Assembly (NCBI GenBank): GCA_045606425.1
Contig: JAZURV010000011.1
Span: forward strand, 3,496-67,495
DNA: 64,000 bases
Origin: Candidatus Enterousia sp.
GTDB lineage: Bacteria; Pseudomonadota; Alphaproteobacteria; Rs-D84
Direction: 5' to 3'
Positions 10,293 through 26,012 of the stretch are shown here, piece by piece. Below the pieces are notes generated by a model. It saw nothing but the letters and a program-made list of their open reading frames with translations. It was not told the origin of the DNA and did not search any database. Numbering within the stretch: position 1 is the first letter of the stretch; every line of letters begins with the position of its first letter. Made by a program: the position numbers and the translations under genes.

Positions 10293-10320
10293 ACACCGCC
10301 CAATCGGGCGGTGTTTTTTA
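10291..10320. terminator. bidirectional rho-independent terminator between convergent genes
   Basis: Perfect 8-bp stem ACACCGCC-caatcg-GGCGGTGT flanked by A and T runs. Confidence 0.75.
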
Positions 10321-10974
10321 ATTTCCACTTGGTGTGTTGAATGTCCAACCGACAAATATTTTCCCATTTATATGTTGTGCTTTCCGTGGGGTACGAATAT
10401 CACCACCATATGTGACCGAACCTGCATTATTTGCCGTGATGTCGGCAGTGTTCGCACTGTCCCATGTTATATTTATAACATTTCCAACACAGACATTGTT
10501 GGAAAGATGATATCCGTTTTCACATCCGTCAAATCCCTGTGTCGTTGTTTCGTTAAATGTAAATGTTCCACCAGGACAAACGCCATGCGATATACATGCA
10601 ACACATTCATCGACATTTGCCGGCAAATAATACCCCGATGAACACGTGTGTGAATTTGGCACATATTTTGCGTGTAATTTTGTTGGAAAATTGGTCGCAC
10701 AAATATTATTCATTGTTGTTTGTGGCACCAGATTAAAATTCAGACCCTGGAAAATGTCTGGATTAAAATTAAATGTTCCACCGAGACATGTAAAACCATT
10801 TGGACATGCAACGCACCCCAAAGTATTCGCCGGCAGATATTGTCCCACAGAACAAGTGTAAGAATTTGGTATGTACGCAGCATAATATTTATTTACCCCC
10901 GTATCACAAACATATTCTGCAAATACAGATTGTGTTATCAGCAATACCAACAAAAACGCAGAAATTTTTTTCAT
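10318..10974 (-). CDS. secreted Cys-rich repeat protein (YYLPAN...C..CP.G..C.GG.F.FN repeats) with C-terminal Listeria/Bacteroides-type (Flg_new) repeat
   Basis: Signal peptide, then two Cys-rich repeats. The C-terminal ITWDSANTADITANNAGSVTYGGDIRTPRKAQHINGKIFVGWTF is near-identical to the C-terminus of ORF 58686-59369. Start overlaps the upstream stop (TAATG). Confidence 0.7.
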   Translation of the reverse strand: MKKISAFLLVLLITQSVFAEYVCDTGVNKYYAAYIPNSYTCSVGQYLPANTLGCVACPNGFTCLGGTFNFNPDIFQGLNFNLVPQTTMNNICATNFPTKLHAKYVPNSHTCSSGYYLPANVDECVACISHGVCPGGTFTFNETTTQGFDGCENGYHLSNNVCVGNVINITWDSANTADITANNAGSVTYGGDIRTPRKAQHINGKIFVGWTFNTPSGN

Positions 10975-11768
10975 TATAAACCACCGACCTCTGGTCCCGC
11001 GATAAATTCGCCCGCACCCGCATTGGTAAAGAATTGTCCTGACACAGTATCGTACATACCCAAAACATTGTCACTGATGCGCTTTGCAGGGATAAGATTC
11101 ATCAACAAAGTTGTGCCGTCCGTGTCGTACATTTGCCAACTGTATAATTTTACATAATCCATTCCTGTTGCCGTCCCATCAGAGTTTGCGGCGAACAGGT
11201 ACATATTATTTGCGGTTTCAAACACATCGGATGTTTGTTGGTGAGAACCAGGTTCGTTGGTATATGTTGTGCCGTTAATATCTATATGAGACGTTGGGTT
11301 CCAGTCAATATCATAGATAGTATTCGCAGTAGCGTTAAATTTTTTTATTGTTCCATAATCTGTATCTGTGCCACTACGAGAATACCATGCTTTGTTGGTG
11401 CCATCGGTATACGGTATCCCAAGGTATTTGCCTTGCATCCAGTCACTGTATTCTTTTGACGACATAAGTGTGTATGGGCCAAACCGTGTCCACGCCACCT
11501 TCGTTTTATATGTGTAATCAGAACGAACCTTACGCCCAAGGTCAATATACTGTGTACCTGTGCTTTCAATATATTCCAGTTCTGTATACAACGCCCACCC
11601 TGCAAAACTGTATCCGTATTTTGCTGGGGCGACCGGGGGTGTGATATTATCACCGGCATCACATGTTGTTGTTTGATACAGCGAACCATCAACATACCAT
11701 TCAACACTGTGTGCAAATGCAGTTATGCAAACGAACACCAATCCAAATATAACAAAAAATTTTTTCAT
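10974..11768 (-). CDS. secreted protein: N-terminal Flg_new-type repeat plus divergent beta-rich C-terminal domain
   Basis: Start placed at MKKFFVIFG (GAGGGG RBS). The N-terminal ~60 aa are homologous to ORF 59372-60046 (VEWYVDGSLYQTTTCDAGDN...KYGYSFAGW). The C-terminus is unrelated to that paralogue. Confidence 0.7.
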   Translation of the reverse strand: MKKFFVIFGLVFVCITAFAHSVEWYVDGSLYQTTTCDAGDNITPPVAPAKYGYSFAGWALYTELEYIESTGTQYIDLGRKVRSDYTYKTKVAWTRFGPYTLMSSKEYSDWMQGKYLGIPYTDGTNKAWYSRSGTDTDYGTIKKFNATANTIYDIDWNPTSHIDINGTTYTNEPGSHQQTSDVFETANNMYLFAANSDGTATGMDYVKLYSWQMYDTDGTTLLMNLIPAKRISDNVLGMYDTVSGQFFTNAGAGEFIAGPEVGGL

Positions 11769-11978
11769 AAATCCCCTCGTTTTCACAAATCAAAAAACCA
11801 CCGGAAAAATTCAGGCGGTTGGAGGTTCAAGACTATATTACGAGAAATAGTGGGCTTATTTATATATATCGCCCCCTCCAACCAAGTTTAGTTGGAGGTT
11901 TTTTCTGTCCCCACGGACACCCGTAATTAGAGGTCTTGACACCCCGTCGACAGAATCCCCATCGACAAACCAATTATA
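11769..11978 (-). promoter_or_regulatory. promoter plus about 200-nt structured 5' leader with attenuator-like alternative pairings (leader L1)
   Basis: Minus strand: extended -10 TGATATAAT (11973-11978). Segments are 1 CCUCCAAC, 2 GGUUGGAGGG, 3 CCUCCAACCGCC, 4 GGUGGU plus a U run just before the RBS. Segment 2 can pair with 1 or with 3, and 3-4 forms the terminator. Confidence 0.45.
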
Positions 11979-12205: not shown

Positions 12206-12525
12206 TGTTAAATCCTTTTGACTTTCGTTCTATTTAACCACATGTTTTTTGAAAACGCAACTATTTTATTTACTTTTTACCAAACCCAGTTTTTTCAGGC
12301 CTTCGATAAACAAAAAGTACACAAAAATCGCTGCAAACAGATTCCAAAAAGGCAAAAATACATTCGATGCTTTCATTTTATACTACCTTTGTTTTGTTGT
12401 GATATTATAGCACACAAACCGGTTTTGTCAAACGATAATCAAAGATGATTTTTTCTGCTTTAATCCTTGACCCAACGGCTAAAATTTTGCTATGTTTTTA
12501 TCAGTTAAAAACAAGGGAAAAAGTA

Positions 12526-15279
12526 ATGTCTGATATTATCGAAACAAATGAAGTCAATGAAATAAAGGTTCCAACTTCGCCGATTGAACATGAAATGCGA
12601 ACATCGTTTTTGGATTATGCGATGTCTGTTATTGTGGACCGTGCGTTGCCAGATGTGCGTGACGGCTGTAAACCGGTGCATCGTCGTATTTTGTATGTTA
12701 TGAACGAAGTGGCGCCTGCGACTAAGGCAACTGTGAAATCTGCGCGTATCGTTGGTGATGTGATGGGACGTTATCACCCACATGGGGATTCGTCTATTTA
12801 CGAAGCGATGGCGCGTATGGCACAAGACTTCTCTATGGGTGAAATGCTGGTCCAGGGTCAGGGTAACTTTGGTTCGCGTGACGGTGATAAACCTGCGGCT
12901 ATGCGTTATACAGAGGCACGCCTGTCCAAACTGGGTGCGTCATTGATGGAAGATTTGGACAAAGACACGGTTGATTGGCAACCAAACTTTGACGGTACTT
13001 TACAGGAACCAATTGTTTTGCCAACAAAGTTCCCTAATTTCTTGGTAAATGGTGGTTCGGGTATTGCGGTCGGTATGGCAACAAATGTGCCAACTTATAA
13101 CCTGGGTGAAGTTTGTAATGGTATTTTGGCTGTTCTTGATAACAAAGACATTACCGATGATGAATTGTTTGGAATTATTCCAGGGCCTGATTTTCCAACA
13201 GGTGGAATTATTATGGGGCACGCCGGTGCTTATAAAGCGCACACAACCGGACGCGGTTCGATAATTGTTCGTTCGAAAACTCATTTTGAAACAGTACATG
13301 ACCATACTGCGATTATTGTTGATGAATTACCATATCAAGTAAATAAATCGCAACTGATTATAAAAATTGCAGAATTGGTCAAAGATAAAAAAATCGAAGG
13401 AATCACAGATATTCGCGATGAATCGTCAAAGGAAGGATTGCGCGTAGTTATCGAATTAAAACGCGACACAATGCCAGAGGTTGTTTTGAATCATTTGTTC
13501 CAAGATACAGAAATGCAATCAAATTTCCCTGTGAATATGATGGCACTGAATCGCGGTCGTCCAATGTTATTCACTGTGCGCACAGTATTGGACGCGTTTA
13601 TTGAATTCCGTGAAGAAGTTATTCGTCGCAGAACGATATTCGATTTGAACAAGGCGCGCAATCGTGCACACACTTTGTTGGGATTGTCTGTGGCGTGCGG
13701 TAATTTGGACGAAGTTATCAAACTGATTAAAGAATCTGCAAACCCAGATGAAGCACGCACTGCGTTATTATCGCGTGGTTGGCCGGCATCTGATATTGAA
13801 TCTTATATCAACCTGATTGACGACCCGAACACAGAATACAAAGACGGTCTGTTCTATATGTCCGAAGACCAAGCAAAGGCAATTCTGGAATTGCAATTGC
13901 ATCGTTTGACAGGTCTGGAACGCGACAAGATTCACAATGATTTGACTGAATTGGGTGCAACTATTAAAGATTTGTTGGCAATATTGGGCAGTCACGAACG
14001 CATTATCCAAATTATTCGTGATGAAACAGCGGCGGTTCGCGATAATTGGTCACAACCACGCAGAACTGAAATATCTGATGCAGAAATCGACATAGATATC
14101 GAAGATTTGATTGCGCGTGAAGACATGGTTGTAACTGTTTCTAATACCGGATATATCAAACGCGTAAGCCTGGATACATATCGCGCACAAAAACGCGGGG
14201 GCAAGGGCCGTAATGCAATGACAACAAAAGATGATGATTATGTTGTAAATGTGTTTGTTGCAAATACTCATACGCCTTTGTTGTTCTTCTCTTCTAAGGG
14301 ATTGTGCTATAAATTAAAAACTTATAAATTACCGGAAGCATCTGCCGCAGGCAAGGGTCGTCCATTGGTCAATTTATTGCCATTGACGGACGGCGAAACA
14401 ATAACTGCGATTTTGCCAGTGCCAGAAGATGAAGTTAAACGCGTTGCAGAATCTGGAGTTGAACATTTCCTAATGTTTGCAACTGCATCTGGTACAGTGC
14501 GCAGAAATCGTATGTCTGATTTTGATTCTATCCGCGCAAATGGAAAGATTGCAATGAAACTGGACGAAGGCGATTCTTTGATTTCTGTATTGCCGTGTAA
14601 TGAAAACCAAGATGTATTCCTTTCTACATATCGCGGTCGTTGCATAAGATTTGCTGTCCCAGAAATTCGTATATTCGCAGGACGCAATTCAACCGGGGTT
14701 CGCGGTTTATCGCTGCAAAAAGATGATTATATTATCGGTATGGCAATGTTGAATCATGGTGAATCTGATTCTGTGGTTCGTGCCGCGTATGTAAAGCAAA
14801 GCCGCGCATTGCGCCGTGCACAGACCGGTATCGAAGAAGAAGCGGATGCCGAAGAAGAAAACACAACATTGGTTTTAAGCGATGAACAAATGGCAAAGAT
14901 GGCGTTGAGTGAAGAATTCATTTTAACAGTTTCTGAAAACGGATTTGGAAAACGCACATCGTCTTATGAATATCGTTTGACACATCGTGGCGGTAATGGA
15001 TTTACCAACATTAAATTGGGTGGTAAAAACACAGCCGTTGCAGGTTCGTTCCCTGTGAAAGAAGACCAAGATATTATGATGGTTACAAACGGTGGTAAAA
15101 TTATCAGAACACCAGTGCGTGATGTTCGTATTGCGGGTCGTTCAACCGCAGGTGTGACATTGTTCAGAACAGCCGAAGGTGAAAAGGTTGTGTCTGCAAT
15201 TGCAATCGACCACGAAGAAGAATCAAACGAAGAAGAAATTGTGTCTGAATCTGAAACAATAACCGAAACAGCAGAATAA
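12526..15279 (+). CDS. gyrA: DNA gyrase subunit A
   Basis: Start at the ATG at 12526 (AAGGGAAA RBS). Has [26 protein letters not shown] and the active-site region AAMRYTE, plus C-terminal beta-pinwheel repeats. Confidence 0.95.
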
Positions 15280-15659
15280 TGGAAACCACGAACGAATATT
15301 TTGTTCCGATAAACGAAGTTGCCAAAGAATTGGATGTACCGGCGCATACTTTGCGTTATTGGGAAAAACAATTTCCGGGCGCAATTCGTCCTGTGACGGG
15401 TGCCGGTAATCGCCGGTATTATCGACGCGAAACGGTTGAAAAAATACGTTCGATAAAATCATTATTGTATGATAAGGGTATGACAATTGTCGGGGTTAAA
15501 AAAATTCTGCACAACGGAACATTTGATGCGGAAACAAATTTTAACGAAAAGACCGGCAAATCCCGGGCAGAAAAATCTGAAATAACGGCACAAATTGCCG
15601 GTGAAGAAATAGATTTTGCGCTGGATTTGTTGAATCAGGCAAAAATGTTGTTGGAATAA
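15279..15659 (+). CDS. MerR-family transcriptional regulator (small alphaproteobacterial type)
   Basis: N-terminal HTH block (INEVAKELDVPAHTLRYWEKQFP...RRYY). Start overlaps the gyrA stop. Confidence 0.8.
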   Translation: METTNEYFVPINEVAKELDVPAHTLRYWEKQFPGAIRPVTGAGNRRYYRRETVEKIRSIKSLLYDKGMTIVGVKKILHNGTFDAETNFNEKTGKSRAEKSEITAQIAGEEIDFALDLLNQAKMLLE

Positions 15660-15674
15660 TTGTAAAATTTTTCA

Positions 15675-15705
15675 AAAAGGCCGGTAAATACCGGCAATTT
15701 TTTTA
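15675..15705 (+). terminator. rho-independent terminator
   Basis: GCCGGT-aaat-ACCGGC hairpin followed by a T7 run. Confidence 0.7.
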
Positions 15706-15882
15706 TTAAAAAACACTTGACACCGATTCGCTGAATTTACTAAGATTAAAGCAAAGGAAGGATTCTGTTTGGTAAAAAAACCACGGAACCCCCCGGATTT
15801 TTGGGAAAAATCAACGAATGCTGTTTAATGGCGTCATTTGCTGATTTTTTTGAATAACAAAGAAACGAAGGAAGGAGAAAAT

Positions 15883-17739
15883 ATGAACAATAAACTTTGG
15901 TTGACGTCCATGGTTGCAATTGGACTGACTTTGCCTGCATCGGCGGCCACATTCCCAACAAATGGTTATATGAAACCAACTAATGGCCAGGCAACAACAT
16001 ATACTGGTGCGGCAATATCGACGAATATGGGTGTGACTAGCGGTACCGCAAACGCTGATGCGTATTATAATATTTTAGCAGGTTATTATTTGCCGGCGAA
16101 TTCATACGAAGCCGCCCAATGTACGGCGGGTAATTACTGTTCTGGTATTGAAAACATCAAAAGTACCTCTTCTGCCCAGGGGATTACGGGCGCTTGTCCT
16201 TCGGGATTCCCAAATTCTGATGTTGGGACATATACTGTACAACAATGTTATCGTAATTGTATCTTGACAGATATCAGTAATACGGAAGGAATTGCTTCAA
16301 ATGCAACGGTGTCTGGGCGCGTAATAAACAATGGTGGAGTTGCTTATTGTGAACCATCCGCCTGTGCGGCAGGTTATACAAAATTGCCGGATTATAAAAC
16401 GACCATTACATCAACAACCAGTAACTACTGGTCTTCGTATAATGGAACAATTACAGGAACCCCTACTGATAACGGCTCTTCTATTCCGTATGGGGTAAAT
16501 TCGTATTGGGCGGCAGATTTTGGTAACATGGGTATGGTTTGGGGGGCTGCCTTGGTTTCGAACAATACTGCAAAATATATCAATTGGACATCAGAGGCTC
16601 CGACATCGGCGAATCTGGGGACTGCATGTTATTGTAGTTTGCGTGGATACAATGGGGTAAGTTTGAACTCTGCATGGGTAAGGGTTGATAACGAATACAT
16701 CACAACCAGTACGGTAGATGGTGGTGCCTGTAATTACTTGTGTGCACAGATGGTTGCCGATCAAGGAGTCGGATTAACAACCTTCCGTGAAGATTTGTTT
16801 TCTATGGGGTCCAGTTCAGAGATTTGCGATCCAAATGTTTACGGTGTTATATATAGTTGTGGTACTGGCACAGGAACCAATCCACCCCAGGGCGCCCCAG
16901 TATATAACAGAACATATACTGTATCTTTGAATACGTATGACAATGGCGGCGGAACAACTACGTATTGTACCAAGGAAGGTTATACATTTAATAACTGGAA
17001 AGACGGCGCAGGCACAACCAGAACTGCTGGCGCGGATATCACATGGACTTATACATCGGCGCAAACATTTACAGCACAATGGTCTGCAAACACCATTACT
17101 TTGAATTGGGATGAAAACAACGGTAGCGCTGTTTCGAATGGGACATGTACGTATGATAGTACGTTGACATTACCCGTGGCATCAACACGTGAAGGTTATA
17201 CGTTTGCGGGATGGAAATTGTATGGTACTAACGGTGCCGTCAAAACCGCAGGTTCGACAGTGGCAAACGGTTGTACAAAAGCCAACACTGGTGTTGCGTC
17301 CGGTACATCAACGGGCATCAAAGCGCAATGGACTGCGAACACAATTACTTTGAATTGGGATGAAAACGGTGGTGACGCTATTTCAAATGGAACATGTACA
17401 TATGATGGTACACTGACATTACCTGCGGCACCTACGCGCGCTGGTTATGATTTTGGCGGTTGGAAACTGAAAAGTGGTACCATCAAAGACGCCAGTTCAA
17501 CTGTGTCTAGCGGCTGTACAAAAGCCAACACGGGTGTTGCGTCTGGTACATCAACACAGATTGTTGCACAGTGGACAGCTAAAACAATTACCATCAAATG
17601 GTATGGTGTATCTGATACAGGAAACACCAATGGTGTATTTGAAACAACCGTCACATACGGTGGTGATATAACAACACCTACTACACCAAAGATGTCCGCA
17701 TCTGGTCAGACATTCCGTGGATGGGTATTCAGAAAATAA
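15883..17739 (+). CDS. large secreted surface protein: Cys-rich N-terminal region plus four Flg_new-type repeats
   Basis: Start at the ATG at 15883 (GAAGGAG RBS) with signal peptide ...LPASAATF. Has a YYLPANSYEAAQCTAGNYCSG motif and tandem repeats ending in G(Y)(T/D)F.GW. Confidence 0.75.
   Translation: MNNKLWLTSMVAIGLTLPASAATFPTNGYMKPTNGQATTYTGAAISTNMGVTSGTANADAYYNILAGYYLPANSYEAAQCTAGNYCSGIENIKSTSSAQGITGACPSGFPNSDVGTYTVQQCYRNCILTDISNTEGIASNATVSGRVINNGGVAYCEPSACAAGYTKLPDYKTTITSTTSNYWSSYNGTITGTPTDNGSSIPYGVNSYWAADFGNMGMVWGAALVSNNTAKYINWTSEAPTSANLGTACYCSLRGYNGVSLNSAWVRVDNEYITTSTVDGGACNYLCAQMVADQGVGLTTFREDLFSMGSSSEICDPNVYGVIYSCGTGTGTNPPQGAPVYNRTYTVSLNTYDNGGGTTTYCTKEGYTFNNWKDGAGTTRTAGADITWTYTSAQTFTAQWSANTITLNWDENNGSAVSNGTCTYDSTLTLPVASTREGYTFAGWKLYGTNGAVKTAGSTVANGCTKANTGVASGTSTGIKAQWTANTITLNWDENGGDAISNGTCTYDGTLTLPAAPTRAGYDFGGWKLKSGTIKDASSTVSSGCTKANTGVASGTSTQIVAQWTAKTITIKWYGVSDTGNTNGVFETTVTYGGDITTPTTPKMSASGQTFRGWVFRK
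17083..17574 (+). repeat. tandem in-frame DNA repeat (249 nt and 243 nt units) encoding two Flg_new-type repeats
   Basis: The units begin tctgcaaacaccattactttgaattgggatgaaaac and actgcgaacacaattactttgaattgggatgaaaac. The protein units (SANTITLNWDEN... and TANTITLNWDEN...) are highly similar. Confidence 0.85.
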
Positions 17740-17758
17740 ACCATTCTGGAATGACACA

Positions 17759-17790
17759 AAAAAAGTCGTGGGAAACCACGACTTTTTTAT
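17759..17790 (+). terminator. rho-independent terminator
   Basis: AAGTCGTGG-gaaa-CCACGACTT hairpin followed by a T6 run. Confidence 0.8.
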
Positions 17791-17915
17791 TTGCATAATG
17801 TTTCACGGTAAAACCAATATTATTCTTGATGGACGCGTGTTGACAAAAAATCTTGCTTGACAATTGGTCGTTTGGGGTGTAATGTGTATCTTCATTGAAA
17901 AAAGGTGAAAATATT

Positions 17916-19325
17916 ATGTCACATGACAATAATTTTGATTTCGAATATGCGGGCTTTTGGGTAAGCGCGTCTTCGCTGGAAAGTTGCGCCAATGATGCAA
18001 TCCATTGCAAACAAAAACTGGGCTTGCAGAATTATTCAACCTATATGGCTGACAGTATTATTTCATGTATCGCGTCTCAATCTTTTAATTTTGATAAAGG
18101 CAACAAACGCGTATTTAAGGCGTTGTACAGAATGTTGCGTGACTATGCCAATGATAATGGTGTTTATTCAGATGAAACACGCGCTGCGATGCGTGCTTTG
18201 TGTGTGTACTGTGGTTTTGCGCCAGATTCAATTGTGTTGACTAACCAGACGGTGCGTTCGACACGTTTCAAACAAAAAATAGGTAAATGGTTTGGATTAA
18301 AAGAACCCCACGATGTTCAAGAAGATAAAATCGACCAAATGTTCGACGCAGCCGCGCAACAAAATAATCAACAAGATGTTTTAGCAGCAGAAGCCGAAAA
18401 GCGTCGTGCAGAAGAAGCGGAACGCAAACGTATCGAAGAAGAAAAGCGTCGTGCAGAAGAAGCGGAACACAAACGTGTCGAAGAAGAAAAGCGTAAACGC
18501 ATTATCGCTGAACAAGAACAAATCAAAAAGGCACAAGAAAGTGTGAAAGAAAATCTGGTTGCGCCAGAAAAACCTAAAAAAACTAAGTGGACCAGATTTG
18601 CCAAAATTGGTGCAACTATCACAGGATTTGTCGCCCTGGGTGCGTTGATGTTATTTAATGCACATGATTCTGCGCAAACAGACAATTCTGTTCAATCTAA
18701 TGACAAAGCGCCAACTTTCAAAACTGTGAATACGGCACAATCTGCACATTATAATAATGTTATAACATACAATATGGCGGACAGTTTGCAGAAACAAAAA
18801 TCAAATCTGGATTCTGTCCTGCAATATCGAAAAACAGCAAATGCGCAGACGCTGCAAAATGCTGGAGCAACAAAACAAACTGTTGCGTCTTCGGAATCTC
18901 AAGCAAAAGCTGAGGCGGTGACCCGGGCCAGTCGCAGTGCGCTGAATGTTTTGATTGGTACAAAGCGGGCGCAGAAACTTTGTGACAATATCCAATCTAA
19001 AGTTGATGCAGGAATATTCAAATTGCCAGATGGAATATCTGTCGAACGCGTCGCACATGCGATGCAGATGAGTCGCATTTACGAAGGTCACAGTGTCATT
19101 TTAGATGCACTGAATTCTGATAAGCCTTTAACAGTCGAAGAACAACGGGCGTTTGATGAACATATCGCCAGTATCGGAGATTTGGGTGTTAAATTGCAAA
19201 AGCGTATGGCAACGAAACATAAATTAAGCAAACACAGTCGTTATGACAATGCGCAAAAAGTACTAAAAATAGCCCACATAAAAAATCTGAAACAGTTAAA
19301 ACAGATAACAAATCGTGCGCGTTAA
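17916..19325 (+). CDS. hypothetical membrane-anchored protein with charged coiled-coil (AEEAE(R/H)KR) repeats
   Basis: ATG at 17916 preceded by AAAGGTGAAA. Has one central TM segment (IGATITGFVALGALMLF) and a Lys/Glu/Arg-rich repeat. No recognisable family. Confidence 0.6.
   Translation: MSHDNNFDFEYAGFWVSASSLESCANDAIHCKQKLGLQNYSTYMADSIISCIASQSFNFDKGNKRVFKALYRMLRDYANDNGVYSDETRAAMRALCVYCGFAPDSIVLTNQTVRSTRFKQKIGKWFGLKEPHDVQEDKIDQMFDAAAQQNNQQDVLAAEAEKRRAEEAERKRIEEEKRRAEEAEHKRVEEEKRKRIIAEQEQIKKAQESVKENLVAPEKPKKTKWTRFAKIGATITGFVALGALMLFNAHDSAQTDNSVQSNDKAPTFKTVNTAQSAHYNNVITYNMADSLQKQKSNLDSVLQYRKTANAQTLQNAGATKQTVASSESQAKAEAVTRASRSALNVLIGTKRAQKLCDNIQSKVDAGIFKLPDGISVERVAHAMQMSRIYEGHSVILDALNSDKPLTVEEQRAFDEHIASIGDLGVKLQKRMATKHKLSKHSRYDNAQKVLKIAHIKNLKQLKQITNRAR
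18396..18494 (+). repeat. 45-bp tandem repeat (2.2 copies) inside the CDS
   Basis: Unit gaaaagcgtcgtgcagaagaagcggaac(g/a)caaacgt(a/g)tcgaagaa is repeated at 18396 and 18441, with a partial third copy. Confidence 0.85.
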
Positions 19326-19384
19326 AACACGGATTGCTTTATCTGGTGTTCGATTGCACCAATGCGTTGAAAATATTGTTTGAT

Positions 19385-20464
19385 TTATCTGAAAAGCGTC
19401 ACTGTGTTTTCGCGCAGTTTTTGCAGTACATAATTATCGCCGGCGCAAAGAAAACATTTTTCATCACATTTTGTGTACGGGCATTCTGCGCAACGCGTTG
19501 GGGGAAAATATTCTGCGTATTCTGAATCTGGCACTTTGTTGCATTCTTTTGAAAATATATGTAACCAATGGTTGTATATCGTTGCGTATTCTGGGTGTTT
19601 CGCCAATTCTGACAACAATACAGAAAACCTTTGCACATTTGCCAGACTGTATCTTTTGTTCGATATTTCATAATTCGTTGCATTTGATAAACTGTTTTCG
19701 TGCCGATGGTATAAATAATCAGCATTTGGAACTGACACGATTCTTTCTGCATATAAACACGCCAGCATACAAAATAAAATATCTTCGTCCAATTGCATGC
19801 CAGGTATAAATCGCAGGTTGTTTTTATCTAAAAATGATTTTGAATAAATCGCAAAGTTCGCGCTTTCGCGAACATCTGCCTGGTTTAATATAACCGATTT
19901 ATCTGCCGGTGTCGCATTAAACACATGTTCTGATGTGTAAATGTGTCGTTTTATATATTTTTCAATATTATTCACTGTGATTTTTCCACCCAGTGCAATA
20001 TCTGCATTTTGACGCTTGGCACAGGTCAGCAAATTTACAAAAAATTTATCATCAAAAAAGTGTTCTTTTATCGGTTGCGTAAGCGATGATTTGCAAATGC
20101 TTAAATTGCCGATTTGACTGTTGTGTACAATTTTGTCGAAATATGGTAAATACGCACTGTATTTTGCGCCAATCGTATCGTCTGCGTCTATGAATGTCAC
20201 ATATTTGCCGCACGCAATATCTGTCCCACGATTGCGGGCCGCGGATACGCCGGCATTTTTCTGGTTGACCAATGTGATGTTTGGGTGTTTTGTTGCGTAT
20301 TCACCAACAATTTGGGCTGTGTTGTCTGTTGACCCGTCGTTTATAACGATAATTTGGAATTTGTCTGCGTCGCGTTGTTTTAAAACACTGTCGATACAGG
20401 CGTCGATACAGTTTGCACCATTAAATACCGGTATAATAATACTTAAATCACAATTATTATTCAT
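19385..20464 (-). CDS. family 2 glycosyltransferase
   Basis: LSIIIPVFNGANCI...VINDGSTDNT...FIDADD motifs. Confidence 0.85.
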   Translation of the reverse strand: MNNNCDLSIIIPVFNGANCIDACIDSVLKQRDADKFQIIVINDGSTDNTAQIVGEYATKHPNITLVNQKNAGVSAARNRGTDIACGKYVTFIDADDTIGAKYSAYLPYFDKIVHNSQIGNLSICKSSLTQPIKEHFFDDKFFVNLLTCAKRQNADIALGGKITVNNIEKYIKRHIYTSEHVFNATPADKSVILNQADVRESANFAIYSKSFLDKNNLRFIPGMQLDEDILFCMLACLYAERIVSVPNADYLYHRHENSLSNATNYEISNKRYSLANVQRFSVLLSELAKHPEYATIYNHWLHIFSKECNKVPDSEYAEYFPPTRCAECPYTKCDEKCFLCAGDNYVLQKLRENTVTLFR

Positions 20465-20518
20465 ACTATATATAATATGACGATATTGTGATTTGTCAAG
20501 AGTTTCTGCTTACGATAA

Positions 20519-21412
20519 TTATTCTTTTATAATTTTTAATACTGGGATTTTTCCAAACACATAGACTTTGTAATATCTAGAATCTTTGGATAAAACGCGT
20601 ATCAGGCGCAACCCGAACAGCCGCAGTTCGTATATGGTGCGATAATTGTCGCGTGCCAAAACCATGCCGTGGCGTTGCATGTGTGCCCGAATTTTATCCA
20701 ATAATATGTCATCGTCCATGTGTGGTGCCAGAAATCCGAAATTGCATATCAGTGGCGCGGCAGTCTTTTTGATAAATGGCACACCCATAATCAAACTGTG
20801 CCGCGGGTTAGAATATAAATCGTTGTTATTGGCGTCCAATACGACCTGCATTTTGAATCCGTGTCGCATAATCATGGCGGTCAGTCCAACTTCGTATTTC
20901 AAAACCAGGTGCATTTTATTTGGAATGTGTTTTATGCCGCGCATAAATTTATCGAAAAATTCTGAACCGAAAATTGCACGATTAAAACCGACAAACCAAC
21001 TTTGCACATGTAAAGGTGTATATGTGTCGCGATTGGCAGCCATACCAATTAAATCAGCGCCTGAATTTTCCAGCCTTGCAACGACGGGTTGCAAATCATT
21101 TAATGGCCCATACACAGAATCGTTTACCAAATAAACCCAATCGTATTTTGTCATATCCAAATGTTCCTTTGCCCATAAATACGCGCGCTTGTACGAACCG
21201 AAATCATATTCGTGATGACGCGTTGCGCCGGCATAAAGAACATTTTTAATTTGTGAAATTTTCTGCAATTCATTCGCCGGTAAATCGTTATCTGCGAAAA
21301 ATACGATGTCGCCAATTTTTGATAACGCATTCAGATAATAAATAACAGTATCATCAACAATATTGTCTTTGTCATAACCTGCAAACAAGAATAAACGTTT
21401 GTTTTTTTTCAT
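20519..21412 (-). CDS. rhamnan-synthesis protein F (RgpF)-like glycosyltransferase
   Basis: Pattern FAGYDKDNIVDDTVIYYL...YDFGSYK...LVNDSVYGP resembles the RgpF family. Adjacent to a GT2 gene. Confidence 0.55.
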   Translation of the reverse strand: MKKNKRLFLFAGYDKDNIVDDTVIYYLNALSKIGDIVFFADNDLPANELQKISQIKNVLYAGATRHHEYDFGSYKRAYLWAKEHLDMTKYDWVYLVNDSVYGPLNDLQPVVARLENSGADLIGMAANRDTYTPLHVQSWFVGFNRAIFGSEFFDKFMRGIKHIPNKMHLVLKYEVGLTAMIMRHGFKMQVVLDANNNDLYSNPRHSLIMGVPFIKKTAAPLICNFGFLAPHMDDDILLDKIRAHMQRHGMVLARDNYRTIYELRLFGLRLIRVLSKDSRYYKVYVFGKIPVLKIIKE

Positions 21413-21491
21413 GGTGAGTGTCCTTGGTTTGGGAATGTATACCGTTAGCCTAGCCTAAAAATATACCAAAGACAAGTTATATTTAATTTTC

Positions 21492-21566
21492 TGGCAGCCC
21501 CAACGGGAATCGAACCCGTGTTGCCGGAATGAGAATCCGATGTCCTGACCGCTAGACGATGGGGCC
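21492..21566 (-). tRNA. tRNA-Glu (anticodon CUC)
   Basis: Hand-folded cloverleaf: acceptor GGCCCCA/TGGGGCT, D-arm GTCT-AGCGGTCA-GGAC, anticodon arm TCGGA-TTCTCAT-TCCGG, T-arm ACGGG-TTCGATT-CCCGT, encoded CCA. Confidence 0.85.
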
Positions 21567-21674
21567 ACGCACGGATTCATTTTACATGTATTAAAAAATT
21601 TTTCAATCATTTTTCCCCTTGTCAGATTTCTTGGCGCTGTGTAAAATATAGATGTCTGCAAAAAAGGATACATC

Positions 21675-22226
21675 ATGAATATATACGATATAAATGTTAT
21701 AGGCGCAGATGGTAATTCTGTTTCGTTGAATAAATACAAAGGCAAAGTTCTGTTGATTGTGAATACTGCAACAGAATGTGGATTTACCCCACAATACGAA
21801 CCGTTGATGAATATGTATAACAAATACAAGAATCATGGTTTTGAAATACTTGATTTTCCGTGCAACCAATTTGGGCACCAGGCCCCAGGCACTGCGGACG
21901 AAATATCAACGTTCTGTACCATGCATTTTGGTGTGACTTTCCCCCAATTTGCCAAGACTGATGTCAATGGCGAAAATGCATCGGAATTATTCAAATATTT
22001 AAAATCTGTCGCACCATTTAACGGTTTTGATATGTCGCAACCAATGTCCAAAGAAATAGATGAAATGATGCGAAAGTTTGATAAAGATTATGATAAAAAC
22101 CCAGATATAAAATGGAATTTTACAAAATTTTTGGTTGATAAAAATGGTGATATTGTTGCGCGTTTTGAACCAACCGATGATATGAACAAGATTGATATGG
22201 AAATATCAAAATTGTTGAATGAATAA
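21675..22226 (+). CDS. gpx: glutathione peroxidase (Cys type)
   Basis: LIVNTATECGFTPQY and FPCNQFGHQAPG motifs. Confidence 0.9.
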   Translation: MNIYDINVIGADGNSVSLNKYKGKVLLIVNTATECGFTPQYEPLMNMYNKYKNHGFEILDFPCNQFGHQAPGTADEISTFCTMHFGVTFPQFAKTDVNGENASELFKYLKSVAPFNGFDMSQPMSKEIDEMMRKFDKDYDKNPDIKWNFTKFLVDKNGDIVARFEPTDDMNKIDMEISKLLNE

Positions 22227-22234
22227 ACATTAAA

Positions 22235-22262
22235 AAACCGGCAAAATGCCGGTTGAATTTTT
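22235..22262 (+). repeat. 28-bp exact direct repeat, copy 1 (also the gpx terminator hairpin)
   Basis: aaaccggcaaaatgccggttgaattttt is identical to 25912-25939. It contains an AACCGGC-aaaa-GCCGGTT hairpin plus a T run. Confidence 0.9.
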
Positions 22263-22607
22263 AACAGTTCTATATATTAAGGGGGCGGATTTTTTACCCG
22301 TCGCCGAAACAAAAAAACAAGCGCAAAAGGCGAAAAAAGCGCTAAAAACAGCGGTTTTTAAGCAAAAAACACCATTTTTTACAAAAAAAGTTCGTCGGTG
22401 GGGGGGTGTTAAACCAGTATAAACTATTTAAATCATATAGTTTATTCGTTTTTTACGCTGAAATGGTAAAACTTATACACGCCAAAGTAGGAACATATCA
22501 TAAAACAAACACACGCAAGCCAAATTTGACTTCAGAACAACCTAAATCATTTTTTCTAAGTGAAGTGTATACAAAAAAAATTGGTTTATATGGCGAATAA
22601 AAACAGT

Positions 22608-22877
22608 TTGTAAAAAATGTCTGTTTGTGATATAATACCTTTGAATCCAAGGGATTGGGTTCGGGGGCATGCTAAAGCCCACTGCATTCGGTGCGAAAGC
22701 ATCGTAATCTGATGTTATCGGTGTTTTTTGCACCGTTGTCATCCCTGACGTATGGTCGGGGGTTCGTTGGTTATAAAACAGGGATAACCCGAAAACCACG
22801 AAATCAGTAATGCAGTGATTTAGCAACTTCCCGACCGCTCTTTCTTGGGCGGTTTAATTTTTATTTAGGAGAGACAA
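22608..22877 (+). promoter_or_regulatory. promoter plus about 235-nt structured 5' leader with antiterminator/terminator (leader L2; homologue of 60047-60285)
   Basis: Promoter TTGTAA-17-TGaTATAAT. Stems: P1 GAAUCCAA-GGGA-UUGGGUUC (22643-22662), P2 GGGC/GCCC, P3 AUU-CGGUGC-GAAA-GCAUCG-u-AAU, P4 CGGUG/CACCG. GGUCGGG (22754-22760) is complementary to CCCGACC (22830-22836), which overlaps terminator ACCGC/GCGGU plus a U-rich tail (to 22863). Confidence 0.55.
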
Positions 22878-23828
22878 GTGAGAAAAATATTGTGCTTTTT
22901 ATGTTGTTTTGTATCGGTGGCATCTTATGGTGCAACAGACGATTTAATTGTTGAGGCACAAGATACTTTTAACGCCACCCAATTGGTTTGTTCTGGGATA
23001 TCGGATGAAATATCCCAAGTGTCTAATGTGTCAAAAATAAATACCGCAGTTACTGCTGTTGGAACAGTTGCTGCCACAGGTGCATTGTATGCTGGTATAC
23101 AAAAATCACAAGAAGAAAAAGAAATAGACGAATTAGTTGACCAAATATGTGCGGCAGGTGGTTGTACGCCAGAAGGCGTGGAATCGATGTCCGATGAAGA
23201 TTTTTTTAATAATGTTATGCAACCCATGGCGCAAATTGCTGAATTAAAAGAACACTTAAAGAAATCAAAAAATTTAGGTAATTGGCGTACAGGTTTAATG
23301 GCTGGAACGATTGGTACCAATGTGGCATCGGCAATTTTATCTGGTGTTAACAGAGACCAATCTGATTTAGTTCAGCATATTCAGGCATGTAATGAAGCAA
23401 TGAAAGCCGTTAATTCTATGTCTGACAAATTAAGACGACAGGGTATAAGCCCGTTGGAATATCCAGTTGTAAACAGATTGGACGGCATTAAAACATGGTG
23501 CAACAGCATAAATGTTTCAGATGTAGAAAAAATAGAAAAACGAATGACTGGCGTTATGGGGACTTCTATTGCTGGTGCAGTTATCGGTGTTGCAGGAACG
23601 GCAACCAGTGCGGCTGCAAATTCTGATAAATACATGGATGAACAAAACCGCATGAAATTGACCGAACAAGAAAGGAAAAAGAAAGATAATTTGAATACAA
23701 CTGCAAATATAATGGCTGGTGCAAATATCGTAACTGGTGTTGTCGAAACAGGGTTAAACATATCACTGATAAATTTGACTAAAAAATTGATAAAACAAGC
23801 CGAGCTATGTGAGGAGGTTTTTAAATGA
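22878..23828 (+). CDS. secreted hypothetical protein with Gly/Ala/Thr-rich zipper segments (paralogue of 2775-3680)
   Basis: GTG start after an AGGAGAG RBS; signal peptide. Motif blocks are shared with ORF 2775-3680. ATGA overlap with the next gene. Confidence 0.65.
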   Translation: MRKILCFLCCFVSVASYGATDDLIVEAQDTFNATQLVCSGISDEISQVSNVSKINTAVTAVGTVAATGALYAGIQKSQEEKEIDELVDQICAAGGCTPEGVESMSDEDFFNNVMQPMAQIAELKEHLKKSKNLGNWRTGLMAGTIGTNVASAILSGVNRDQSDLVQHIQACNEAMKAVNSMSDKLRRQGISPLEYPVVNRLDGIKTWCNSINVSDVEKIEKRMTGVMGTSIAGAVIGVAGTATSAAANSDKYMDEQNRMKLTEQERKKKDNLNTTANIMAGANIVTGVVETGLNISLINLTKKLIKQAELCEEVFK

Positions 23829-24763
23829 AAAAATACATAATAATGTCTTTGTTAATTTTTGTTCCGGCAATTGCTGTAGCAGGCGACCATTGTACAAATC
23901 CTGGTGAATATACAATAGATAAACGTTGCTATGTTACTGATGAACAAAAGTCGCAAAAGCCGTACAATGCCGTGGTAAAAGTTGAGAATCCTAACAAATA
24001 TAAGTACAACTGCACAGGGGTAATCATAAAAGGTGAAGACAATACGCCTTATTTGGTAACGGCAAAACATTGTGCTCGCCCAGCTGACACCTCAAAAGAA
24101 TTTTTTCAGCCAGAGAAAGTTGTTATATTATTGCAAGACGGTTCCCTTTATCTTACGGCAGAACCTTATTCTTTTGGACGCACCAGTGCAGAAAACTATA
24201 ACAAGAGAGACGATTGGGTAGTTTTTAAATTTAAAGACGAGGATAAAGAAAAATTAAAAAACCTTGCACTTGAACCAAAAGGAATAGAAAAGGTAACTCC
24301 AGACACATATAATCTTAATGCGCGGTTCGTGGGATATAGTGCTTTAAAAATCATGAGTGATGAAGAGATAAAACGCTTAAAAAAAGAATATGCAGAATAT
24401 ATGTTTAAGAGACATAATGAGCGTGTAAAAGAAGATGAATGGGGTGGCATAGAAGTCGTTACGTATATATTAGACGGAAATTGGCCAGAACTTACAAGGG
24501 ATGACGACTATAAGTTGAAAGTGTCTGATTGTATATATAAAGCTGGACGTTATGGTAGTGGTTGTCAAGGATGGGTGGGTAGTTATGGTGGACCTATTCT
24601 TGATGCAGACGGTAATGTGCTGGGAATTGTGACGCGCACTGACAAATATCGTATCGGTGGTTTTAAGCATGCAGAAGTAGGCAATAATGTAAATGTTGGT
24701 TTTGAGGAAGGTACCATTAGAATAAATAAGACAGGTTTACCGTCAACAGATGAAACGAAATAA
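23825..24763 (+). CDS. secreted trypsin-fold protein, possibly catalytically inactive (Ser position reads Tyr)
   Basis: GAGGAGG RBS and signal peptide. His motif LVTAKHC and Asp motif DDWVVFKF are present. The GDSGGP position reads GSYGGP (Tyr codon 24584-24586). Confidence 0.65.
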   Translation: MKKYIIMSLLIFVPAIAVAGDHCTNPGEYTIDKRCYVTDEQKSQKPYNAVVKVENPNKYKYNCTGVIIKGEDNTPYLVTAKHCARPADTSKEFFQPEKVVILLQDGSLYLTAEPYSFGRTSAENYNKRDDWVVFKFKDEDKEKLKNLALEPKGIEKVTPDTYNLNARFVGYSALKIMSDEEIKRLKKEYAEYMFKRHNERVKEDEWGGIEVVTYILDGNWPELTRDDDYKLKVSDCIYKAGRYGSGCQGWVGSYGGPILDADGNVLGIVTRTDKYRIGGFKHAEVGNNVNVGFEEGTIRINKTGLPSTDETK

Positions 24764-24788
24764 GGAGATAGTTTTATGAAGAAAAACA

Positions 24789-24836
24789 GTTTGTAAAATC
24801 TACTTGTTGTCGAACGATGTTTCAAATCAAACGGGC
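24789..24836 (+). repeat. 48-bp exact direct repeat, copy A
   Basis: gtttgtaaaatctacttgttgtcgaacgatgtttcaaatcaaacgggc is identical to 25846-25893. An overlapping 17-nt string, aaaaacagtttgtaaaa (24782-24798: 7 nt upstream plus the first 10 nt of this repeat), also occurs at 22599-22615. Confidence 0.9.
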
Positions 24837-24845
24837 GCGACAAAG

Positions 24846-24886
24846 CCAATATTCAAACGCACCACAAGGGTGCGTTTGAATATTGG
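24846..24886. repeat. 18-bp perfect inverted repeat (long hairpin) between convergent genes
   Basis: ccaatattcaaacgcacc - acaag - ggtgcgtttgaatattgg. There is no clear T run, so it may be a bidirectional terminator or a recombination/REP-like element. Confidence 0.8.
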
Positions 24887-24915
24887 TTGTGGTCAGTGGG
24901 CGGAACGCGAGTTGA

Positions 24916-25593
24916 TTATTCATATGTTTTTAATAAATCGTACCATATTTGTGGTGCACCAACTTCATCAAAATATGCTTTAATGAAATTGACAATTACT
25001 TTGTGTTTTTGTTCTGCATATTTACGACCTGGCACAGTTAAACACATATCACGCAAGTGCAACATTTTATTAAAGAAATGGGTGATACTTGGGTCGACTT
25101 CGCTATTTCTGTAAGTATCTGCATCTAATTTTTTTGGTAAACATTCAGGGTCAAAAAAAGGTTTCCCACTGCCTGTGCGATATTCAATAGCACGAACCAT
25201 TCCTATGGCCCCCGATGCATCGCACATATCGGCATCAGATACAATTTCGCCCTCTGTACCGTATGCTTGAATGCCCTTTAAGCGTTTGCTGTATCCAATC
25301 GTTTTTACGATATTTATAACATTTTCACAAAAACTGGTATCAAAGCCCGAACCGGATAATATACGTCTTGTATTTGTCATTAAACGTTCTGATTCTTCGC
25401 CGAATAATTTGTAATCATCGCAATCATGTAACAGAGCTGCCGCCGCAACTAAATCGCGATTAGCAGATGGAATATCATCACAAAACTTCATAGCAGTATT
25501 ATAAACACGAAATATATGTTTATCATCGTGCCCATTAGAATTATTTTTAAGTAATTCAAAAACAGATTTTTTTATATATTCAATACCGGTCAT
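24916..25593 (-). CDS. HD-domain phosphohydrolase
   Basis: The H...HD...D signature is present (GHDDKHIFRV..., AALLHDCDD). Start placed at the ATG at 25593, because the longer track ORF begins with TTG. Confidence 0.75.
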   Translation of the reverse strand: MTGIEYIKKSVFELLKNNSNGHDDKHIFRVYNTAMKFCDDIPSANRDLVAAAALLHDCDDYKLFGEESERLMTNTRRILSGSGFDTSFCENVINIVKTIGYSKRLKGIQAYGTEGEIVSDADMCDASGAIGMVRAIEYRTGSGKPFFDPECLPKKLDADTYRNSEVDPSITHFFNKMLHLRDMCLTVPGRKYAEQKHKVIVNFIKAYFDEVGAPQIWYDLLKTYE

Positions 25594-25845
25594 ATGCAAA
25601 CCCTTTTTATCATATTCTTTATCAAAAATATTAGATTTTTGCAATATGTTTGTAATTGGTTTAAAAGTGTCAGCAAAGATATGTTTTTTCTAAAAATTAC
25701 TTTCGAACTTGCCAAAGTCTTATATTTTTGCTCTCTGGAATGCGCACGAGACCTTGATAAACAATAATACAAATGTCGCGCACGGATTCCCTCGCTCGTG
25801 CTAAAGCACGGCTGCGGGTCAACCGTAACGATTTTACTGCACGTC

Positions 25846-25893
25846 GTTTGTAAAATCTACTTGTTGTCGAACGATGTTTCAAATCAAACGGGC
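25846..25893 (+). repeat. 48-bp exact direct repeat, copy B
   Basis: Identical to 24789-24836, 1057 bp away. Confidence 0.9.
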
Positions 25894-25911
25894 AATCCAA
25901 AAGCAAAAATT

Positions 25912-25939
25912 AAACCGGCAAAATGCCGGTTGAATTTTT
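25912..25939 (+). repeat. 28-bp exact direct repeat, copy 2 (terminator hairpin directly 3' of tRNA-Gln)
   Basis: Identical to 22235-22262, 3677 bp away. Confidence 0.9.
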
Positions 25940-26012
25940 GGTTGGAGCGCACGGATTCGAACCATGATAAAGAGAACCAAAATCTCTTGTCCTACCATTA
26001 GACGACGCTCCA
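25939..26012 (-). tRNA. tRNA-Gln (anticodon UUG)
   Basis: Hand-folded: acceptor TGGAGCG/CGCTCCA, anticodon arm AGAGA-TTTTGGT-TCTCT, T-arm CATGG-TTCGAAT-CCGTG, discriminator A, encoded CCA. Confidence 0.9.

Follow-up and report, generated by a model that had tools for sequence, protein, structure and literature searches.

Transcription attenuation leaders, polymorphic toxin and effector loci, the S1B serine proteases and tRNA-flanked islets are the described systems that stand closest to the locus considered here, which lies in 64,000 nucleotides of Candidatus Enterousia DNA (the window, being the whole stretch that was analysed) and consists of a structured leader RNA followed at 22878-24763 by a cassette of two genes, A2 and B2. 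Enterousia belongs to the order Rs-D84, and its genomes, mostly smaller than 1 Mb, encode no tricarboxylic acid cycle, no respiratory chain and few transporters, a reliance on partner organisms having been proposed (2025 paper, PMC12306168). Of proteins that might bear on how these bacteria live it notes only [quoted passage not shown] (PMC12306168). Put as one statement, our best explanation is that A2 and B2 would form a coupled and exported pair, that the leader would be an attenuator, that A would serve as carrier for its partner and that the cassette would have been relocated, and we lean towards this combination being right. Its descriptive parts, namely the anatomy, the family distributions, the covariation, the synteny and the loss of a serine, are held with high confidence, whilst the functional statements on A2, B2 and the leader all rest on sequence inference.

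The leader is like the riboswitches, T-boxes and leaders of protein-dependent antitermination in having a promoter, a structured domain and a terminator before the ribosome binding site, in the mutually exclusive pairings predicted for it (switch element 2 with element 1 or with element 3) and in its many copies per genome. In contrast to these systems it is not in Rfam 15, serves a heterogeneous regulon of mostly exported proteins rather than one pathway, and has switch elements that fall into at least four co-varying classes. The A loci are similar to polymorphic toxin and effector loci (such as the type VI secretion system (T6SS) effector Tlde1 with its adaptor) in that a constant gene accompanies interchangeable exported enzymes, in that the partners other than B have a common N-terminal region and varied C-terminal domains, and in the rapid diversification and tandem arrays seen at A and B loci. 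However, ordinary Sec signal peptides are used, A is unrelated to known adaptors, and no T6SS, type VII secretion system, contact-dependent inhibition system or obvious immunity gene was noted at the A loci, whole genomes not having been searched for them. B2 shares with the S1B enzymes (GluV8/V8, ETA/ETB, Spl) a double beta-barrel fold, a single domain, the catalytic His and Asp and a predicted secretion, but differs by a Tyr in place of the nucleophile, and the B family as a whole differs by a helical insertion, a Cys-rich N-terminal motif and its obligatory coupling to a 5' A gene. The cassette region is like tRNA-flanked islets in lying between tRNA-Glu and tRNA-Gln, in its variable content and in the short direct repeats at its junctions, yet it has no integrase, its repeats do not correspond to tRNA 3' ends and its GC content is unremarkable (0.36-0.39, the window having 0.40).

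The leader RNA family

The promoter, leader and genes of the unit are as follows (ORF, open reading frame).

22608-22636, plus strand: sigma-70 promoter TTGTAA-17-TATAAT with a TG extension, 10 of 12 matches
22643-22864, plus strand: structured leader of class I, from the z score of its minimum free energy (MFE), a covariance model score of 217.9 bits and covariation
22743-22749, plus strand: switch element 1, CCCTGAC, 5' arm of an invariant hairpin (54 of 54 sequences, partly by construction since the metagenome search pattern held the class-I elements)
22755-22761, plus strand: switch element 2, GTCGGGG, predicted to pair with element 1 or element 3
22829-22835, plus strand: switch element 3, TCCCGAC, repeating element 1 and overlapping the terminator 5' arm
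22833-22864, plus strand: intrinsic terminator, GACCGCTC-loop-GGGCGGTT then TAATTTTTAT, with the hairpin at 22833-22854 and a T-rich tail
22878-23828, plus strand: A2 ORF, GTG start, 316 aa
23825-24763, plus strand: B2 ORF, 312 aa

A 250-nt stretch holding the leader folds at −94.1 kcal/mol, with z = −5.6 against shuffles. Rfam 15 at the gathering score gave three tRNAs only and no leader family across the whole window, and relaxed to E ≤10 gave nothing relevant over the leader within 22200-23000, and so the leader belongs to no RNA family described in Rfam 15; a literature search on Rs-D84 and riboswitches found no papers. About 200 related loci (numbered with an L) were fetched for comparison. 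Searched with a covariance model built from six copies, the genomic loci yielded about 20 leaders, often immediately ahead of an A gene (L013, L043, L052, L053 with two copies, L054, L056, L057 and L058 amongst them), whereas BLASTN with the leader had recovered 4 copies in the first 80 loci and the rest needed the model. A metagenome pattern scan contributed around 56 more, and the family is put at some 60 homologues.

Within the window the same model located leaders at 60063-60257 and at 11788-11974 as well, each of them on the minus strand. The former is of class I and precedes genes at 59372-60046 and 58686-59369, the latter is of class II (CCUCCAAC/GUUGGAGG/CCUCCAAC) and precedes 10974-11786 and 10318-10974, and these two gene pairs are paralogous and of exported type, an "NWYVDG...TTC" protein being followed by a Cys-rich protein. 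The search for further units of leader and cassette that the earlier note had suggested therefore yielded two more leader plus two-gene units in the window as well as leaders before A genes elsewhere, but no second copy of the present module in the window or in the fetched loci. At L062:1237-3845 a class-I leader and its small exported ORF stand ahead of a large serine recombinase of 501 aa, after which comes an A gene whose partner has 1105 aa.

Covariation was tested with a hand-specified structure on a MAFFT alignment (A8) of 54 copies, the structure consisting of a 5' hairpin, a long-range closing stem in three parts, a hairpin with a GNRA cap, three further hairpins and the terminator. 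In this alignment 92 % of cells are paired, 36 pairs have changed on both sides, and 364 compensatory cells are counted, where shuffles have 107 ± 9 (none of 500 reaching as many) and sliding of the partners leaves 38-78. The terminator stem co-varies too, with one of its pairs being GC in 37 and AU in 12 sequences. A first RNAalifold run on the 54 sequences had proposed a local GGGG...CCC hairpin, and inspection together with the pair counts favours the long-range helices instead. In every homologous leader examined the −10 box stands 6-8 nt before the GAAUCC start. The promoter and leader that the earlier note had attributed to the cassette are thus borne out, as a sigma-70 promoter and as a member of a covarying structured RNA family.

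The three switch elements shift together as a set across four classes, and this comparison used copies found independently by the covariance model. Besides CCCUGAC/GUCGGGG/CCCCGAC in class I and the class II set given above, the sets are CCUCCUG/CAGGAGG/CCUCCUG and UCCCGAU/GUCGGGA/UCCCGAC, and in all four element 3 abuts the terminator.

The cassette and its older paralogue

A Shine-Dalgarno sequence AGGAG at 22867-22871 lies 7 nt 5' of the A2 start, and at the junction with the second gene (AAATGAAA) the ATG of B2 overlaps the TGA of A2 in an ATGA. Signal peptides could be read by eye in both proteins (MRKILCFLCCFVSVASYG before AT in A2, MKKYIIMSLLIFVPAIAVA before GD in B2), and from these N-termini A2 and B2 are both predicted to be exported through Sec. 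A first cassette at 2775-4546, encoding A1 and B1, has the same layout, including the ATGA overlap if B1 starts at ATG 3677. The resemblance of the two cassettes claimed in the earlier note therefore holds for ORFs, junction and N-termini, and the claim of shared motif blocks holds in so far as B1 and B2 both score above the Pfam gathering threshold for Trypsin_2/Trypsin, but not for the catalytic-serine block, which is GDSGAP in B1 and GSYGGP in B2. Nor is the cassette at 22878-24763 a second copy in any recent sense, although a second A plus B pair it is: A1 and A2 are 32 % identical over their full length (E 2e-40), and B1 and B2 can barely be aligned (best high-scoring segment pair 28 % over 89 aa, E 5e-6; 21 % in the family alignment). 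From these figures the two are old paralogues and no recent duplication took place. A1 starts 5 nt past the murG stop (window 2769-2775), and given this gap the leaderless A1-B1 pair appears to belong to the ftsW-murG operon for the cell wall.

A constant first gene with a changing partner

The strongest clue to function is that A stays constant and its partner does not. Genes were surveyed in 80 genomic loci and the window, using greedy longest-ORF gene calls and A and B profiles for classification, the source of all 80 related loci being metagenome-assembled genomes of uncultured Alphaproteobacteria or Ca. Enterousia from rumen and gut. Of 83 A genes with downstream sequence 68 have a same-strand partner overlapping or abutting the A stop. 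These partners comprise 27 of B type, 14 from a family of mostly about 1000 aa and a remainder in 13 clusters, 7 of which are singletons, and every partner has a hydrophobic, signal-like N-terminus. Several of the non-B families share by eye a Cys-containing N-terminal region and differ in their C-terminal parts. Tlde1/YkuD-like domains occur in two separate partner families, and an endolysin or tape-measure-lysin-like partner domain was matched in PHROG (E 2e-12 and 9e-11) and weakly by an endolysin in the PDB; a PDB sequence search with one partner of about 1000 aa gave no match, and neither did PHROGs with A and B themselves. Tandem B arrays behind a single A gene occur. At L002:4951-7631 and L203:5080-7798 three tandem B-type genes of about 40 % mutual identity stand behind one A2 orthologue, and at L202:596-5600 an A2 orthologue of 87 % identity has no B partner and adjoins opposite-strand phage-like genes (ERF, DUF3127, WYL_2).

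The A family itself is well populated, with 1407 relatives for A2 (the nearest 97, 89 and 87 % identical) and 998 for A1, and falls into 476 clusters at 50 % identity among 1.84 billion representatives. It has no credible sequence match in Pfam, NCBIfam, PHROG or the PDB, and is an all-helical and lineage-restricted family without known relatives. In an alignment of 99 sequences C38, C171, C208 and C311 are invariant and four segments rich in Gly, Ala, Thr and Asn are conserved. The AlphaFold2 model of A2 contains long helices only (predicted local distance difference test (pLDDT) 67.6, predicted template modelling score (pTM) 0.46), and its confidence is lowest exactly at the four Gly/Ala-rich segments, whose Kyte-Doolittle hydropathy peaks of 1.2-1.4 stay under the usual transmembrane threshold. 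Glycine-zipper membrane proteins such as VacA and the Caulobacter CdzC/D offer a comparison for these segments: the motif (G/A/S)xxx(G/A/S)xxx(G/A/S) has matches in A2 beginning at residues 65, 69 and 142, and the Pfam glycine-zipper families gave no match with A2. Overall A is probably an exported and disulfide-bonded helical protein, and the amphipathic segments of A2 are possibly membrane-active.

Foldseek with the A2 model against the PDB and BFVD returned nothing significant, the best PDB entry being at E 0.017 with template modelling (TM) scores of 0.2-0.3. The weak list was mostly made up of alpha-pore-forming toxins of the ClyA family at TM 0.2-0.3, and within the ClyA/Hbl/Nhe/XaxAB group AhlB came out best (E 0.045, TM 0.20) with none at E ≤1e-3, for a model of moderate confidence (pLDDT 67.6). 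In its size of about 300 aa, its long helices and its Gly/Ala-rich semi-hydrophobic segments A is like ClyA, AhlB, MakA and XaxB/YaxB, but it has no sequence relationship with them and structural E values of 0.017 or above, and so these entries, and the tape-measure ones beside them, are leads only. Three borderline sequence matches of A2, to Pfam P5CR_dimer (25.4 bits for a cut-off of 25), to NCBIfam proC (E 4e-4) and to TALE repeats in the PDB, were rejected as short helix-loop-helix look-alikes because each covers a partial domain outside any Rossmann or TALE context. All three fall on ICAAGGCTPEGVESMSDEDFF, an insert specific to the A2 subfamily (residues 86-110, window ~23133-23207) and not in A1, which could form a small helix-loop-helix module carrying two additional cysteines. 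Coiled-coil-type Pfam matches of A1 (AAA_23 and others) were all under cut-off and are noise.

A constant first gene followed by interchangeable, fast-evolving exported enzymes suggests for A the task of carrying, anchoring or translocating its partner, and a role for A as a membrane- or envelope-active carrier, anchor or translocator is put forward tentatively, as a proposal with rather less than an even chance. The A-partner pairs may then be tools that act on the envelope of the cell itself or of a neighbouring cell, and the Tlde1-like and lysin-like partners, the hot-spot site and the diversification argue for a role in interaction or attack. Several observations weigh against so reading the pairs. 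About 15 of the 83 A genes are without a same-strand partner; no immunity gene or target was identified, and the gene-order survey shows no constant small downstream gene; no dedicated secretion system was noted, whole genomes again not having been searched for one; the A model is of moderate confidence and without a significant fold match, and "membrane-active carrier" rests on composition and gene context. Further, the place of A1-B1 just behind murG is as compatible with a housekeeping function in the envelope as with an offensive one.

That A and B are housekeeping envelope proteins is the competing account given the most weight, though we consider it doubtful. A would then be a periplasmic or outer-membrane scaffold, B a quality-control or processing protease and the other partners the wall-remodelling enzymes of the cell itself. 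The location of A1-B1 in the ftsW-murG cluster supports it, as does a gene-order survey without an immunity gene or specialised secretion system, and the YkuD-type L,D-transpeptidase and muralytic domains have a place in normal wall metabolism too. However, there are many paralogues per genome, B diverges fast (at most 47 % identity) where A orthologues reach 87-97 %, the tandem B arrays have to be explained, two partner families are best labelled in Pfam by Tlde1, a T6SS effector domain, and a variable hot spot together with a conditional leader is typical of accessory genes of the interaction type. At the far end of the carrier proposal, and rather unlikely in so specific a form, A might be the membrane-inserting delivery or anchoring part of an unrecognised Sec-dependent two-gene effector system of Rs-D84, with partners attacking the envelopes of the partner or prey cells depended upon, and with the arsenal partly, the present cassette included, under a new class of multi-copy riboswitch-like attenuator that senses a global signal.

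A protease fold without its nucleophile

B2 is matched in Pfam by Trypsin_2 (32.9 bits, cut-off 27.6) and Trypsin (25.9, cut-off 20.6), and its profile matches include trypsins, HtrA, glutamyl endopeptidases and exfoliative toxins. Its AlphaFold2 model (pLDDT 84.3, pTM 0.85) has 395 Foldseek matches in the PDB at E ≤1e-3, and those at the top are exfoliative toxins, V8 and Spl proteases at E 1e-8 and TM 0.43-0.55. The family has six conserved cysteines, an N-terminal Cys-rich motif DHCTNPxEYTIDKRCYVTDEQK and a helical insertion of about 60 residues (H179-197, H213-224). B2 keeps the catalytic His82 (TAKHC) and Asp130 (DDW), columns that are H and D in 151 of 152 B-family sequences each. At the position of the nucleophile it has Tyr254 in GSYGGP, not G-[DN]-S-G-G; every other aligned family sequence has Ser there, and Tyr is found in the window protein only (which is present twice among the 152).

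24584-24586, plus strand: TAT codon of Tyr254, TCT or TCA in relatives

The change from Ser to Tyr, together with the unusual divergence of B2 (best relatives 43-47 % identical, against 87-97 % for those of A2), makes it most likely that B2 is a catalytically dead derivative. B2 would then have an S1B-like fold as a predicted inactive member, would probably bind substrate without cleaving it, and would represent a new S1B-like protease group, the B family, inactivated in this one protein. A caution is that TCT to TAT is a single-base change in a metagenome-derived sequence, where an error or a minor variant is possible. B2 could also be active, with the Tyr codon owed to an error of sequencing or assembly or to a rare allele, or with Ser253 standing in as the nucleophile, and in keeping with this the remainder is intact (six Cys, His and Asp) and the protein is known from one contig. 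Yet we judge an active B2 improbable, given that the preceding conserved Asn/Asp is altered as well (AGT TAT in B2 for AAT TCT in relatives), such that two adjacent substitutions are required, and that B2 is the most divergent member, with at most 47 % identity to any relative, which fits a relaxed or altered constraint. It is also established for the chymotrypsin fold that the nucleophile is preceded by a residue pointing away from the catalytic His, the position that Ser253 would take in B2.

Repeats and relocation in the tRNA islet

In many Enterousia genomes there is a backbone of gyrA, merR, a variable segment, tRNA-Glu, a second variable segment, tRNA-Gln and three conserved genes. Within it the window has the order tRNA-Glu - gpx - leader - A2 - B2 - HD gene - tRNA-Gln, so that the cassette does sit inside an islet, in the variable segment between the two tRNA genes. 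Other A cassettes are found between tRNA-Glu and tRNA-Gln in other species (L041, L050, L068), and the interval corresponding to 12445-26012 holds a differing number and type of A cassettes in L001, L005, L041, L050, L064, L068 and L203. The interval from gyrA-merR through tRNA-Glu to tRNA-Gln is a hot spot.

In the closest complete relatives (L001, L003, L008, L203 and L205), with A2 orthologues of 76-87 % identity, A2-B comes before tRNA-Glu and hence on its other side, and in L001, L002, L203 and L204 it is preceded by another A-type pair. The leader is absent from all of these loci. From this synteny we conclude that a relocation or rearrangement of the cassette occurred within the tRNA-Glu/tRNA-Gln hot spot; the cassette would have been repositioned in the lineage of the window and placed behind a class-I leader. 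L013 has an A2-type gene with a leader of class II, and therefore an independent association of leader and gene. The sequences at the junctions of the unit are as follows.

22307-22598, plus strand: non-coding spacer that travels with leader and A2 in L201, at ~93 % identity from ~22307
22599-22615, plus strand: left 17-mer AAAAACAGTTTGTAAAA, an exact match that contains the −35 hexamer
24782-24798, plus strand: right 17-mer AAAAACAGTTTGTAAAA, an exact match
24789-24836 and 25846-25893: 48-nt perfect direct repeat (100 % identical), copy 2 adjoining tRNA-Gln
24846-24886: long inverted repeat where the B2 and HD-domain genes converge (41-nt opposite-strand self-match, 88 %)

The exact 17-nt repeats of the earlier note are present, the right one overlapping the 48-nt repeat, and despite being A/T-rich they are not due to chance: exact 17-mer pairs are estimated at about 0.2 in 64 kb and about 0.001 in the 5-kb region concerned, and at up to 2 mismatches the 17-mer is found 4 times where 0.18 are expected (none of 100 shuffles has as many). 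Near-copies with 2 mismatches each lie at 32648-32664 and 32702-32718, 54 nt apart and inside the ORF 32182-32823. The 48-nt repeat brackets the HD-domain gene (24916-25644, minus strand), and its copy 2 with surroundings is kept beside tRNA-Gln in distant species (L050, L044, L038, L064). On the minus strand this repeat reads as a promoter TTGAAA-17-TAGATT, which from copy 1 would fire antisense into the B2 3' end; a plus-strand promoter was sought in the second 17-mer and 48-mer and no acceptable −10 box was found. An identical 28-nt terminator hairpin, AAACCGGCAAAATGCCGGTTGAATTTTT, occurs at 22235-22262 after gpx and at 25912-25939 beside tRNA-Gln. The inverted repeat is probably the operon end. 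The right 17-mer is a hybrid whose left arm equals the site at 22599 and whose right arm equals that at 25846, around the common core GTTTGTAAAA.

The closest relative available, the 1.45-kb contig L201, shares spacer, leader and A2 (93.8 % nt identity, A protein 97 % identical) and ends inside A2, so the comparison covers the left junction. Here homology begins at ~22307, 290 nt to the left of the 17-mer, with differing sequence further 5'. L201 is without a 17-nt stretch, GTTTGTAAAAAATGTCT, and this indel takes in the last 4 nt of the left 17-mer, of which 13 of the 17 bases (AAAAACAGTTTGT) are present.

These details bear on the proposal of the earlier note that a 2.2-kb unit bounded by the 17-mers moved or was duplicated as a module. 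The proposal is borne out in part: the movement stands, from the synteny, whilst a module bounded by the 17-mers is unlikely. A discrete mobile or duplicated element of leader, A2 and B2, with the 17-nt direct repeats as its ends (a target-site duplication or attachment-site-like), has in its favour the exactness of the 17-mers and their precise placing on either side of the unit, each within an intergenic region, the hybrid nature of the right one, and a position of the cassette across tRNA-Glu from that in the leaderless loci. It nevertheless has poor prospects. The block shared with L201 starts at ~22307 and not at 22599, and the 17-mer there is incomplete; no recombinase, transposase or integrase is found in 21.4-26.0 kb; the search described above gave no second module copy, and the proteins of 2775-4546 are 32 % and 21 % identical to those here. 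No gpx or HD genes were found near A genes elsewhere, and therefore no "empty site" was identified. The nested 48-nt and 28-nt repeats show generic recombination at intergenic motifs and point to patchwork recombination over a defined mobile element. We thus take the islet to have been reshuffled by patchwork recombination at short intergenic repeats, with the 17-mers as one scar or substrate of this process and not the ends of a discrete mobile element.

Elsewhere in the window tandem repeats occur in coding regions, at 17073-17605 in units of ~245 nt with 75-79 % identity and at 18390-18503 in 45-nt units encoding EAEKRRAEEAERKR-like repeats.

How the leader may control the cassette

Since the switch elements co-vary as a set, element 2 can be expected to pair with element 1 or with element 3, constituting a terminator/antiterminator switch, and transcription attenuation is the likely mode of leader control. 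In the mechanism we propose, transcription would start at the sigma-70 promoter and give the structured leader of ~220 nt as first product. In its most stable fold element 1 would pair with element 2 and a long covarying helix would close the domain, in which case the terminator at 22833-22864 could form and transcription would stop before A2. Were element 2 to pair with element 3 instead, the 5' arm of the terminator would be occupied and RNA polymerase could read into A2-B2, with the two proteins translationally coupled via ATGA and both exported. A small ligand, a protein or some other factor would shift the balance. With the 2:3 pairing imposed the fold comes to −72.5 kcal/mol, the MFE fold being at −92.8, and that the terminated state is more stable by ~20 kcal/mol is a difficulty for the switch, as read-through would need some input; the default is then OFF and the input must favour read-through.

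Control by a leader RNA, as the earlier note had it, has good support from the anatomy and from comparison of the copies. The genes behind the leaders are a mixed set of A genes, one B gene, the secreted "NWYVDG" family, lipoproteins, regulators of the XRE type and, in a few cases, cytoplasmic proteins, and no candidate ligand or regulator emerges from so heterogeneous a gene context. Signal-peptide-like N-termini occur behind 46 of 65 leaders against a background of 38 % (p 5e-7, by a crude heuristic), and in nearly all leaders a same-strand gene with a Shine-Dalgarno sequence lies 10-25 nt past the terminator. This near-constant arrangement, the lack of any other evident promoter for A2, the antiterminator-switch signature found in each of the four classes, with element 3 a repeat of element 1 that overlaps an arm of the terminator, and an absence of conservation 5' of the −35, so that there is no insertion with ends of the kind made by miniature inverted-repeat transposable elements, render it very improbable that the leader is an independent small RNA gene or repeated element with no control of A2-B2, even if its own promoter and strong terminator, its default product of ~220 nt and its occurrence before very different genes in at least 3 copies in 64 kb would suit such an element.

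What the locus means for Enterousia

Of most value is the new RNA family, whose predicted switch co-varies class by class; with some 60 members and strong covariation it is ready for ligand screening and for deposition as an RNA family. Second to it comes the rule of a constant A with a variable partner, and B2 would be a natural example of a pseudo-enzyme that arises in a fast-evolving, effector-like family. Enterousia and its relatives are abundant in gut and rumen and have genomes below 1 Mb. The locus gives two testable pieces of their biology, these being a putatively exported helical A family with a variable enzyme partner, and a likely RNA attenuator of genes for exported proteins.

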